Assembly (NCBI GenBank): GCA_028275775.1
Contig: JAPWTZ010000012.1
Coordinates: forward strand, 1 to 16,692
Direction of reading: 5' to 3'
From: Candidatus Nanopusillus sp.
GTDB taxonomy: Archaea > Nanobdellota > Nanobdellia > Nanobdellales > Nanobdellaceae
DNA: 16,692 nt
Part shown: positions 7,723 through 16,692 of the stretch, piece after piece
How the letters are laid out: each line of letters begins with the position of its first letter
How positions within the stretch are numbered: position 1 is the first letter of the stretch
Made by a program: the position numbers and the translations under genes
Notes under the pieces: model-generated
Seen by the model: the letters and a program-made list of their open reading frames with translations, nothing else
What the model was told of the DNA's origin: nothing
Database searches by the model: none

Positions 7723-10690
7723 GGGGGATGAGAGGGAATATATAGTCTCAGGAACCCGCCCGGTGGATGCCTGGGCTCGGAAGCCGAAGAAGGGCGCGGC
7801 AAGCTGCGAAAAGCCGGAGGGAGGTGCATGCAACCGTTGATCTCCGGATCCCCGAATGGGATATCCTGCTGAAAGGCATCCCGTAAGGGAGGGGAACGCG
7901 GGGAAGGGAAACATCCTAGTACCCGTAGGAATAAAAAACAAATTGTGATTTCCTGAGTAGGGGCGACCGAAAGGGAAGGAGCCTAAACCGAATCCTCTAA
8001 AGTAATTTAGAGGAGATGTGGGGTAAAGGAGCGGGAGCTTCCCGTTATTGTATTCCCAGAACTCCGGTGGAAGTCCGGGGCCGTAGAGGGTGACAGCCCC
8101 GTATGGGAATACAGTAACGGGATTTCCCGTTTCCGGAGTACCGGCGGTTGGATTTCCGTCGGGAAGTTGGGGGAAACTAGCCCCCAAGGCTAAATACTCT
8201 CCGAGTCCGATAGCGTATTAGTAGGGCGACCGAAAGGTGAAAAGAACCCTTGGTAGGGGGTGAAAAGAGCCTGAAACCGGGCGGGGATAGTCTGGTAGGG
8301 CTAGTTAAGCATCCTATCTGGGAAAATCTGGTGACAGATGAGTACCAGATAGGGTGCTAGCTAGTTCTACCGTGAGTTTTGAAGAACTTGCGGGGGAGTA
8401 TACCCGAGTGGCGAGGTTAAGGTTTATACCGGAGCCATAGGGAAACCGAAAGCCCGCAACCTGGGTTTTCCCAGGTGAGGGGCGCCGTCCCATAAGGGCG
8501 GTTTAGTCACTCGGGTATGACCGGAAACCGGGCGATCTACCCCGGGGCAGGGTGAAGCGGGTTTCCCGTGGAGGCCCGAAGAGGTGGAGCTTACTCCTCT
8601 CATGACCTTGGGGTAGAGGTGAAAAGCCACTCGGGCCCGGTTATAGCCGGTCCCCGCCGAAACTGACCCCAGCCAGGTCTCGGGTTAGGATCCCTTTGGT
8701 GTAGAGCGACGGATTCTGTACGGGTTTCCGTACAGAGTCCAACTCCGAAGCCATAGGGTCCGTAGCCCGGGAAACGGGGGTTGCGGGAAAGCCGCAACTC
8801 CGAGACGGGAACAACCGAGACCGAGGTTAAGGCCCCAAAGTGCTGGCTAAACGATGTTGAAGGAGTCTGCCCCCTAAGACATCGGGGATGTGGGCCTAAT
8901 AGTGGCCATCATCTAAGGAGTGTGTAACAACTCACCCGACGAGGGGGTAGGCTCCGAAAACGGACGGGTCTAAGCCAGCCGCCGAGACCTCGGTCCGCTG
9001 GCAAATGCCAGCGTGAGGTAGGCGGGCGTCCCGATGGCCTAGAAGGGTTCCCGAAAGGGAGCCTGGAGCCGTCGGGAATGAAGATCCCCGCGGTAGTAAG
9101 AATCAGACGGGTGAGAATCCCGTCGGCCGAAAGGGGAAAGGTTTCCCAGGCAATGAAGATCAGCCTGGGGTTAGTCGATCCTAATCCAGGCTCCGAGAGG
9201 AGTCTGGAGAAAGGGAAAGGGGTTAATATTCCCCTACCGCCCCGATAGATGCGGCAACGCAACGCCCTTTCCCGACCCGGAGGGCTAGGCGTACACGGGG
9301 GTGGGGTAAAACCCACTTACCGTGCCAAGGGGGATAGGACCGGGGAGTACCGTCATGGTGAGAACCGGTCTAAACCCTGATGGGCCCGAAAGGGTTATGC
9401 CGAGGCCTTCCAGCAATGAAAAGGGAAAGGGTGCGATTCGAGGCGATCGTACCGAAATCCAGCATAGGTCCCCTGGGTGAGAAGCCTAAGGCCGTGGGGG
9501 TCAAGCCGGTCTAGGGAACTTGGCAAATTGGTCCCGTAACTTCGGGAGAAGGGATGCCTGCGGTGTGGACCGCAGGTCGCAGTGACAAGGACGGGCGGAC
9601 TGTTTACCAAAAACATAGCTCCCAGCAAGCCCGAAAGGGTTTGTACTGGGGGTGACGTCTGCTCGGTGCCGGTATCTGAATCCCCCGTTCAAGGGGGGTA
9701 AGGACCGGTAAACGGCGGGGGTAACTCTGACCCTCTTAAGGTAGCGTAATGCCTTGCCAGTTAAATGCTGGCTCTGCGAACGACGTAACTAGCCCGCCAC
9801 TGTCCCGGGCCGGCGCCCCCTGAAAAGCTATCCTGGTGAGAAGGCCAGGGACTTCCGATGGGTAAGAAGGACCCCGTGAAGCTTAACCGCAGCCTGTTGT
9901 TGCTCTGAAGAACCTGGTGTGTAGGGTAGCGGGGAGCGATGAATTCCTGCCGCTAGGTAGGAAGGATGCGACGATGAAACACCCGCCTCCAGGTTCTTCA
10001 GGGCTAACCCGAAAGGGGACAGCGGCAGGTGGGCGGTTTGGCTGGGGCGGCACCTTGCCGAAAAGGTATCGGCAGGGTCCATAAGGTCAGCTCAGGCGGG
10101 TCAGAAATCCGCCGTAGAGGACAAGGCCAAAAGCTGGCCTGACTGTGCCCTGACCATCAAGGGGCACAGGGGGGAAACCCGGGCCTAGCGAACCCCGTAC
10201 TCTCACTAGTGGGGGTACGGGCTGGCGGAAAAGCTACTCCGGGGGTAACAGCGCCGTCGCGGGCGAGAGCCCCCATTGACCCCGCGGTTTGCGACATCGA
10301 TGTCGTCTCTCCCCATCCTGGTGGTGCAGAAGCCGCCAAGGGTGGGGGTGTCCACCCATTAAAGGGGATCGTGAGATGGGTTCAGAACGCCGCGAGGCAG
10401 TTCGGTTATAACTGTCGGAAGTGCTGGCCGCCTGAGGGGAAGGTCCGCCTAGTACGAAAGGAACGGCGGGCCGGGGCCTCTGGTATACGGGCTGTCCGTG
10501 AAGGGCATGCCCGGTAGCTACGCCCTAGGGGATAAGCCCTGAAAGCATCTAAGGGTGAAGCCCCCCTCAAAAATAGGCGGCCGTTAAGGGGTCGGATAAA
10601 AGATCCGACTCAGAGCGGCGGTGTAAGCTCCGAAAAGGAGTTCAGCCGACCGCTTGAAGTTCCCGTGAGACTATATATTCCCTCGACCCC
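7723..10690 (+). rRNA. rrl: 23S (LSU) rRNA including flanking processing-stem arms
   Basis: The plus strand carries GGUGGAUGCCUGGGC (5' domain), GCUGGGGCGG, GGGGUAACAG...AUCGAUGUCG...GGGUUCAGAACG..CAGUUCGGU (peptidyl-transferase region) and AGUACGAAAGGAAC (sarcin-ricin loop). The arm 7732-7749 (GAGGGAAUAUAUAGUCUC) pairs perfectly over 18 bp with 10667-10684. This is extended by GGGG 7724-7727 with CCCC 10687-10690, and by GGAAC 7751-7755 with GUUCC 10659-10663. The mature ends are probably near 7750 and 10665. Confidence 0.97.
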
Positions 10691-14867: not shown

Positions 14868-15365
14868 TTATAAATAATATTTTGAAAGGTATTCTAAAAT
14901 ATTTTTTATTCCAAAAACATATTTTTCTTTCATAGAAATTATTTCATATATAAAATTTAGCATATCTTTATAATCTGTAAATATATAAGGTTCTTTATTT
15001 AAATATTTTGATATATAATATTCTGAAACATTATATCCAATATTATAGAAATATTTGTTATTTTTTTGGATTAAATATTTATATTTTTCCTCTTTTTTAT
15101 AATTGTATAATAAAAAAGATAAAAATACTCCTTCTATTGGTAATATTAATATTGAATTTTCCTTTATTTCAATTTCTTCAACTTTTTTATATATATTTAA
15201 ATTAATTTTAAATCCCATATTGAATTTTTTATCTATTTTATTTATTATATCTAAAACAAAATCTTTTGTATTTGATTCTAATGCAATTATATTTATATTA
15301 GAATTTCTTTTGAATTTTTTTGAATTTCTAATCTCCCTTTTTGTCAATTTTTCATATATATTCAT
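14868..15365 (-). CDS. hypothetical protein (165 aa)
   Basis: A long same-strand ORF whose start overlaps the TGT stop (ATGA). I recognise no motif. Confidence 0.5.
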   Translation of the reverse strand: MNIYEKLTKREIRNSKKFKRNSNINIIALESNTKDFVLDIINKIDKKFNMGFKINLNIYKKVEEIEIKENSILILPIEGVFLSFLLYNYKKEEKYKYLIQKNNKYFYNIGYNVSEYYISKYLNKEPYIFTDYKDMLNFIYEIISMKEKYVFGIKNILEYLSKYYL

Positions 15366-16570
15366 TTTACATTTTTAAATGAATTAAATGGATATACATA
15401 ATCAAATATATCTTCAATATCTTTTTTATCAACCCTTTCATTTATCCTTTCTAATGCTCTTTTAACATCTATCCTAATTTCATTTAATTCCCCTCCATAA
15501 AATATTCCAGATCTCTTTCTTATTGGTTCTAAAGATTTTAAATAATTATAATATTTCTCTAAAATTAATCTTGTTGCTTTATATAATGAATAATGGGTAT
15601 GTGCCTTAATTAATATTAAATCTGTTAAATATTCATTTTTTATTGCATCTTTTGAAATTTCGATTTCTTTAATTAAACTATATAAATTATGTTCTGCTAA
15701 TATTTTTATTAATTCTTCATTATTATAATCTTTTATTTCTTCTATATGATATATATTGTTTTTTGTTTCAATATAAAAGTCCTTTATTTCATCATATCTA
15801 AATGTACCATATGGTGTTAATATTCTTTTATCTTTAGCAAATAATATATATGAAGCAGAATCAAATATATCAAAACCTAAATATATTGATAATGGAATTA
15901 TTAATGTATGACCCATTCCAAATAAATGTACAGGTTTATTAAATGGTAATAAAATCTTTGGTTCAAGTGAAAGTTCTAATAATTTATAAAAATTATAATT
16001 TATCATATATGGGACAATTGTACCAATTGCGAATATATCTACATCTAAATTTTTTACATATTCAGCAGCTTTTCTTCTTAGATCAATATATATTCCACCT
16101 TGTATTGCTCCATTAATTAATTTATCTCCTTTTAATTTTATTCCTTCCTTTATCCTTTCAATTGTAATATTTAATTCTTTTTCAGCTTCTTCTTTTGATT
16201 TATCAATATCTGTTGGTATATCTAAAACATTTAATATATCAGAATTTATTTTTATTTGATATTCAATAATTTCTTTATTTGTTATTTCTAAATCTTTTTT
16301 ATAATGCAACATTTGATATGCTCCAGAATCAGTTTCAATAATTCCATCAAAATTTAGGAATTTATGTATATCTCCATCAAATTTTTTTCTATATAAAATA
16401 TATGCATTTGTAATTATTGCATTAATTCTATATTTTTTTATTATATCTATTGGTAAAATATTTTTATATGGATTTATAACTGGTAAAAGTAGAGGTGTTT
16501 CTATTTTTTTATTTTTATATTTAATAATTCCTATTCTTCCAGCTCCATCTCTATGTTTTATTTCAAACAT
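15362..16570 (-). CDS. tgtA: archaeosine-type tRNA-guanine transglycosylase, catalytic domain only (no C2/PUA domains), cysteine-free
   Basis: MFEIKHRDGAGRIGIIKYKNKKIETPLLLPVINP, ETDSGAYQ, HLFGMGH and FDIFDSASY match ArcTGT catalytic-domain motifs, including both catalytic Asp contexts. It is 402 aa, versus about 580 aa for full-length ArcTGT. Confidence 0.88.
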   Translation of the reverse strand: MFEIKHRDGAGRIGIIKYKNKKIETPLLLPVINPYKNILPIDIIKKYRINAIITNAYILYRKKFDGDIHKFLNFDGIIETDSGAYQMLHYKKDLEITNKEIIEYQIKINSDILNVLDIPTDIDKSKEEAEKELNITIERIKEGIKLKGDKLINGAIQGGIYIDLRRKAAEYVKNLDVDIFAIGTIVPYMINYNFYKLLELSLEPKILLPFNKPVHLFGMGHTLIIPLSIYLGFDIFDSASYILFAKDKRILTPYGTFRYDEIKDFYIETKNNIYHIEEIKDYNNEELIKILAEHNLYSLIKEIEISKDAIKNEYLTDLILIKAHTHYSLYKATRLILEKYYNYLKSLEPIRKRSGIFYGGELNEIRIDVKRALERINERVDKKDIEDIFDYVYPFNSFKNVK

Positions 16571-16598
16571 TATTTTATAATATAAGAAAATTTTATTT

Positions 16599-16692
<94 letters not shown>

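Follow-up and report, generated by a model that had tools for sequence, protein, structure and literature searches.

The stretch of DNA analysed here (the window, 16,692 nt) is contig C40 of a 40-contig genome bin (536 kb, 24% GC, 79.7% complete), whose nearest named relatives are Candidatus Nanopusillus and Nanopusillaceae. The window carries an archaeal 23S rRNA gene (57% GC), the 3' end of a 16S rRNA gene and, on the minus strand, a 402-aa open reading frame (ORF) assigned below to the tRNA-guanine transglycosylase TgtA (ArcTGT), followed by a second conserved ORF and the uS19 gene (Table 1). This second ORF has no Pfam or NCBIfam match and gave no match in an N. equitans-like locus (L022), but the order tgtA, 165-aa ORF, uS19 is kept in 17 Nanopusillaceae loci, in which identity of the ORF falls to 32%; it encodes a family-specific protein and is transcribed together with tgtA and the gene of a ribosomal protein. 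Elsewhere in the bin, reverse gyrase is split over two contigs into a helicase half and a topoisomerase half, and the same split has been reported in N. equitans and Nst1 (PMC3655853). Together, the GC content of the 23S rRNA gene and the split reverse gyrase fit a thermophilic nanoarchaeal symbiont.

Table 1. Features of the window and of other contigs of the same genome (G000); positions given without a contig are those of the window.
Feature	Position	Strand	Remarks
23S rRNA gene	7739-10677	+	stands alone
Conserved 165-aa ORF	14868-15365	-	overlaps the tgtA stop by 4 nt; uS19 follows
tgtA N-terminal half (TIM-barrel catalytic domain, former zinc subdomain, C1 domain)	15362-16570	-	402 aa, no Cys
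His294 codon (P. horikoshii fourth zinc ligand His307)	15689-15691	-	retained here; no longer constrained in the clade
Residues 264-280, DFYIETKNNIYHIEEIK, in place of the CxCxxC zinc knuckle	15731-15781	-	1iq8 and family alignments
Asp237 codon (P. horikoshii Asp249, catalytic nucleophile), in the FDIFDSASY motif	15860-15862	-	1iq8 alignment; invariant
Asp117 codon (P. horikoshii Asp130, base recognition)	16220-16222	-	1iq8 alignment; invariant
Asp81 codon (P. horikoshii Asp95, catalytic)	16328-16330	-	1iq8 alignment; invariant in 69 sequences
C2-PUA tail ORF	C2:823-1320	-	165 aa (152 aa from the likely start); TGT_C2 2e-17, PUA 1.5e-18
Reverse gyrase, helicase half	C26:50542-52290	-	model positions 3-556 matched
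Reverse gyrase, topoisomerase half	C5:33877-35733	+	model positions 562-1170 matched
Archaeal Nre gene (Nre_N and Nre_C)	C20:331-1476 (locus L035)	+	adjoins the 96-aa PUA ORF
Stand-alone PUA-domain ORF, UPF0113-like	C20:1456-1746 (locus L035)	-	96 aa; at the contig end

Profile searches assign the 402-aa ORF to the archaeal enzyme. It matches the Pfam TGT domain (PF01702) at 1.1e-56 and 192.9 bits (cut-off 26.3) and the TgtA equivalog TIGR00432 at 386.7 bits (cut-off 350), with only 103 bits for the bacterial Tgt equivalog (cut-off 306.75). Using phmmer, residues 2-382 aligned to the Pyrococcus horikoshii ArcTGT (PDB 1iq8) with an E-value of 3e-84 and 41% identity over the catalytic and C1 domains, and the C1 domain is covered by two alignments, the first reaching chain residue 397 of 1iq8 and a Foldseek structural alignment covering 390 columns. 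The catalytic Asp pair and base pocket of the P. horikoshii enzyme (1iq8, 1j2b) are the same in the 402-aa ORF, with D95, S96, D130, Q169, F229 and D249 corresponding to D81, S82, D117, Q157, F217 and D237, and all six columns are invariant in 69 aligned homologues. The position of P. horikoshii Gly196, at which the backbone alone is thought to matter, is occupied by Thr184. Judged by these profile scores, domains and residues, the 402-aa ORF is a genuine TgtA/ArcTGT.

Unlike the 402-aa ORF, P. horikoshii ArcTGT is a single chain that includes the C2 and PUA domains, and it binds zinc through C279, C281, C284 and H307. In the phmmer alignment to 1iq8, residues 264-280 face F-P-C279-S-C281-P-V-C284-S-K-Y-T-P-Q-E-L of Pyrococcus and the four ligands fall on I267, T269, N271 and H294, so that the CXCX2CX22H zinc site is absent and only the fourth ligand is kept (LAEHNL, compared with LALHNL in Pyrococcus). 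A reading made earlier from the DNA letters alone (the sequence-only reading) had described a TGT entirely without cysteine, in which residues 264-280 lie opposite the zinc knuckle while the catalytic contexts and the downstream His are retained, and all of this was borne out: the translation contains zero Cys in 402 residues, the 1iq8 alignment places the segment as proposed and agrees with the Pyrococcus sequence that this reading had given, and the six catalytic and pocket residues align together with H294. The same reading had raised a sequencing or assembly error as a possible cause of hidden Cys codons. Neither TGT nor TGC occurs as a triplet in any of the reading frames across 15680-15800, so a frameshift conceals no Cys codon there, and the segment is likewise Cys-free in ~30 independent orthologues from other assemblies; an assembly or frameshift artefact is therefore rejected.

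A Cys-free protein is in itself unremarkable in this genome, with a proteome Cys content of 0.59% and no Cys at all in 41 of the 151 ORFs of at least 350 aa, and the specific part is the loss at the ligand positions. A general purge of Cys or Zn was considered as a cause and rejected: although Cys is rare, ~35-40 ORFs still carry CxxC pairs of the zinc-ribbon type (a motif count, without individual annotation), which makes the loss of the zinc site gene-specific.

An AlphaFold2 (AF2) model of the 402-aa ORF, built from a 69-sequence alignment, had a pLDDT of 92.1 and a pTM of 0.92, and Foldseek superposed it on 1iq8 chain A with a TM-score of 0.89 and an rmsd of 1.8 Å. Where the sequence-only reading had left it to structure prediction to show what stands in place of the zinc knuckle, the model places an ordered β-hairpin (residues 266-268 and 273-275) followed by a short helix, with a local pLDDT of ~90-93. 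A control run, with an alignment restricted to 31 zinc-less nanoarchaeal sequences, returned the same local structure (pLDDT 89-93 at residues 251-290). Since the structures used to train the AF2 network include 1iq8, the ordered hairpin is supportive but not fully independent evidence.

The remainder of the enzyme is encoded in trans. The sequence-only reading had reasoned that the C2 and PUA domains must be absent or located elsewhere, and had noted that the N. equitans arcTGT is split; a search of the genome for a PUA-domain ORF found the missing tail on contig C2, and the split is the same. This C2-PUA ORF shares 36% identity with residues 437-578 of Thermococcus TgtA (E 1e-25), also aligns to 1iq8 at 440-578, and was found in all 12 genomes of the genus, with the N-half and the C-half of tgtA lying hundreds of kb apart in the three closed ones (G001, G004 and G006). 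The arrangement is thus of the split type, with two non-adjacent genes and a break between C1 and C2, as known from NEQ124 and NEQ305 of N. equitans and Nst096 and Nst232 of Nst1 ('Nanobsidianus'), in which the break site is the same (Podar 2013, PMC3655853). The small PUA ORF on contig C20 was also considered as the missing tail and rejected, as it has no TGT_C2 domain and resembles a universal archaeal PUA protein. This 96-aa ORF is unrelated to TgtA, though it is the cause of a weak TGT match nearby.

We surveyed TgtA sequences using 120 close matches and 150 representatives of 50%-identity clusters. The C.C..C motif was absent from the aligned region in 52 of 264 near-full-length sequences, and in the 268-sequence set no zinc-less sequence covering the catalytic domain had lost any of the three Asp residues. 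Outside Nanoarchaeales, the named zinc-less sequences belong to Thermoplasmata and Thermoplasmatales, Poseidoniales and Altiarchaeota. In the column of the fourth ligand, His is present in 212/212 motif-bearing sequences as opposed to 34/52 zinc-less ones (A, N, V, I, Y or F in the others), and this relaxation is what a true abandonment of zinc predicts, and speaks against a motif that has simply been misaligned. At the first Cys position, zinc-less TgtA as a whole mostly has a hydrophobic residue, and at the second mostly Thr or Ser; the zinc-less nanoarchaeal sequences have only I, L, V or F at position 267, with E268, T269 and Y274 at least 90% conserved.

For the history of the loss, a maximum-likelihood tree was built after removal of the columns bearing the zinc-site trait. 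The zinc-less Nanopusillaceae have as their sister, at 100/99 support, a zinc-bearing split-type sequence from a 5-kb metagenome contig (P0032; identity to the query 58-60%), and the zinc-less N. equitans clade branches outside this pair. The AU test rejected one common clade of the zinc-less nanoarchaeal sequences at p = 0.0045, for a group named after the first tree had been seen. Nanopusillaceae and the N. equitans clade have therefore probably lost the site independently. The first branch within the Nanopusillaceae clade, P0033, has two Cys left (SFICGFKEC) and looks like an intermediate. Other nanoarchaeotal sequences of ~400 aa and split type (P0037-P0042) retain the zinc motif, which argues that the gene split predates the loss of zinc. 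The zinc-less Thermoplasmata sequences P0127, P0138 and P0146 form a separate clade far from Nanoarchaeales, so the two groups share the trait and not its origin. In total, the zinc trait changes state at least 4 times on a 41-row tree and at least 12 times on a 264-row FastTree.

Zinc-less ArcTGT is already published as a class, to which this enzyme is a thermophilic split-type addition. The Thermoplasma acidophilum enzyme Ta1493 does not contain CXCX2CX22H and restores archaeosine at 60 °C in T. kodakarensis lacking arcTGT; the same work cites the Ferroplasma acidarmanus ArcTGT as well, places the zinc site opposite the catalytic pocket and states that some ArcTGTs lack it (Kawamura et al. 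2016, NAR 44:1894, PMC4770233). Like the 402-aa ORF, Ta1493 is a bona fide ArcTGT without the zinc motif and with the catalytic residues kept. However, Ta1493 consists of one long chain, carries three insertions in C1 and C2, shows multisite specificity (G13 and G15) and was lost at 85 °C (PMC4770233), whereas the enzyme described here is split, has no insertions and comes from a thermophile bearing reverse gyrase. Because Thermoplasmata branch far away on the tree, the 402-aa enzyme lost its site independently of Ta1493.

The zinc subdomain contributes to ArcTGT homodimerisation, and two of the four zinc ligands are missing from the phage 9g protein DpdA (Hutinet et al. 2017, PMC5699537). DpdA resembles the 402-aa ORF in having the TGT fold and a zinc site that is not conserved, but its substrate is DNA, it lacks a PUA partner and the relationship is distant. 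The view of the sequence-only reading that the zinc site is a constant of TGTs does not hold in the face of Ta1493 (PMC4770233), DpdA (PMC5699537) and the 52 of 264 surveyed TgtA without the motif. Much closer to the present case is the N. equitans N-half (P0036, 410 aa), which is 51% identical to the 402-aa ORF and likewise free of both Cys and the motif; the N. equitans clade differs from Nanopusillaceae in a 5-residue deletion in the hairpin and in its separate loss of the site on the tree. Searchable published descriptions of the split ArcTGT of N. equitans and Nst1 give the split only, with no mention of zinc-site loss, and a literature search thin on subscription-journal papers found no report of zinc loss in nanoarchaeal TgtA specifically.

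We consider it likely, with a probability of about 0.8, that the 402-aa ORF is the catalytic subunit of a split-type archaeosine tRNA-guanine(15) transglycosylase that has lost its zinc site, in a thermophilic Nanopusillus (Nanoarchaeota) symbiont. The N-half and the separately encoded C2-PUA subunit would together exchange G15 of tRNA for the 7-deazaguanine base preQ0, by what homology suggests is the usual two-Asp mechanism. The small zinc subdomain appears to have been kept as a fold with its metal binding gone: with a hydrophobic residue (I/L/V/F) at the first Cys position and a conserved Thr at the second, side-chain packing and hydrogen bonds probably replace the zinc clamp in holding the hairpin. 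Comparable exchanges are known in the ribosomal proteins S14, L31, L33 and L36 and in the adenylate kinase lid, of which the Cys-less forms swap a Cys4 or Cys3His zinc clamp for packing and hydrogen bonds with function kept. Those C+/C- zinc-ribbon proteins have unrelated folds and are often paralogues switched by zinc supply; the TgtA of this genus, unlike the C+/C- ribosomal proteins, is a single gene. The zinc loss would have followed the gene split, and probably occurred separately in Nanopusillaceae and in the N. equitans clade.

The proposed substrate is present throughout, as all 35 of the 35 tRNA genes found by ARAGORN have A14-G15. The 12 genus genomes (G000-G011), which all carry both TgtA halves, contain no ArcS above cut-off, so that the search for ArcS suggested by the sequence-only reading came back empty in the window's own genome as in its relatives. 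No genuine QueC was found in these genomes, only PP-loop motif matches in unrelated ORFs of 340-510 aa, and no QueF either, for which the Pfam model is a weak probe that was silent in archaeal control genomes too. The pathway search covered ArcS, QueC and QueF, and its QueC part is expected to catch GAT-QueC fusions as well. With no recognisable QueC, QueF or ArcS in the genus, the host is the probable source from which the preQ0 base is salvaged, and position 15 of the tRNA may remain at preQ0 instead of reaching archaeosine. The absence of the enzymes that make preQ0 and finish archaeosine provides a testable prediction on salvage of the base from the host and on the final modification state of nanoarchaeal tRNA.

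The same gap in the pathway could point to an enzyme that is functional but repurposed, using another salvaged base (e.g. the host archaeosine base), extra positions or other substrates, in the manner of the multisite T. acidophilum enzyme or the DNA-modifying DpdA. That the other characterised zinc-less ArcTGT modifies both G13 and G15 (PMC4770233) fits such a reading, as do homology models in which some ArcS-less Crenarchaeota might accommodate the G+ base, but canonical ArcTGT does not use this base (PMC5485725 for both). Moreover, the ORF exceeds the cut-off of the TgtA equivalog, its substrate pocket has the canonical residues D81, S82, D117, Q157 and F217, all genomes of the genus keep the C2-PUA partner that binds tRNA, and no dpd DNA-modification context is seen, the neighbours being 16S rRNA, the conserved ORF and uS19. 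We regard repurposing as improbable.

Less probable again is that a structural metal is still bound through a new set of ligands, with His294 joined by Glu268, His275 or further carboxylate and imidazole groups in its vicinity. This protein does retain His294, E268 is among the residues conserved in at least 90% of the clade, and His275 sits in the hairpin. However, His294 is replaced by N, V or A within the same clade, residue 275 varies (H, E, D, Y, R) as does position 271 (N, K, H, Y, S), and five hairpin residues are missing altogether from the N. equitans clade, leaving no constant set of three or four ligands.

All indications are that the gene is intact. Of 40 related genomes, 29 have an orthologue; among them are the 12 genomes of the genus (three closed), each of which yielded one tgtA match, and no full-length orthologue has an internal stop. 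Nei-Gojobori dN/dS against 14 orthologues was 0.08-0.21 when taken over the entire gene, and residues 255-300 gave 0-0.40. A second TGT was not found in the window's own genome (79.7% complete), in which the only other PF01702 match is an 11-bit, stop-containing fragment on contig C20; this fragment adjoins the Nre gene and the unrelated PUA ORF, and with one match per genus genome a second canonical tgtA is rejected. The sequence-only reading had offered either a zinc-independent TGT in a thermophile or a decaying gene, and had named a second, Cys-containing tgtA together with relaxed selection on this copy as evidence against its own proposal. The first alternative stands and the second falls on the low dN/dS and the single copy, no such second gene having been found in this genome or across the 12 of the genus. 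A decaying or inactive relic, with Cys lost through relaxed selection, is the least credible reading of all: the genome is extremely reduced and Cys-poor and the archaeosine pathway around the gene is absent, but dN/dS is low, stops and frameshifts are absent from the orthologues of 29 genomes, the catalytic residues are invariant without exception, 12/12 genus genomes have kept the partner ORF too, and genomes of such small size rarely keep dead genes. By all sequence criteria the gene is functional, and the loss of the zinc site is, from the pattern of substitution in its orthologues, a fixed lineage trait under purifying selection.

Taking the catalytic subunit of a split, zinc-less ArcTGT as the preferred reading, TGTs can do without the zinc site, and its loss has recurred: the site is missing in Nanopusillaceae, the N. 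equitans clade, Thermoplasmatales, Poseidoniales and Altiarchaeota. Among these, the nanoarchaeal ones suggest that zinc loss is compatible with life at high temperature, whereas the sole zinc-less enzyme studied so far was lost at 85 °C, and the nanoarchaeal zinc-less TgtA offers a natural test of packing in place of a metal clamp. The picture of the enzyme family is extended by this, not changed. A bolder version, which we put forward tentatively and think somewhat doubtful, is that two sister lineages of host-attached Nanoarchaeales independently dropped the TgtA zinc clamp while (hyper)thermophilic, and that their enzyme, split and free of metal, acts on host preQ0 at 80 °C or above and leaves the tRNA at preQ0-15, because no ArcS, QueF-like or GAT-QueC enzyme exists to take it further. 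If true, this would be the first natural lineage with preQ0 as the end product at position 15, and it would provide a thermostable metal-free TGT scaffold and a hint of selection against Zn or Cys dependence in ectosymbionts.

Two further observations concern the neighbourhood and the length of the gene. In the window, the 16S rRNA ends ~30-40 nt upstream of the tgtA start, on the same strand (window 16570-16692, minus strand), and relatives have the same 16S-tgtA layout (loci L011 and L012), in which the open frame upstream of tgtA runs through 16S sequence. One Nanopusillaceae homologue (protein P0024, 622 aa; locus L018, 648-aa open frame) is far longer than its 400-aa relatives, and this long frame could be a fusion, upstream read-through or a mis-called start.
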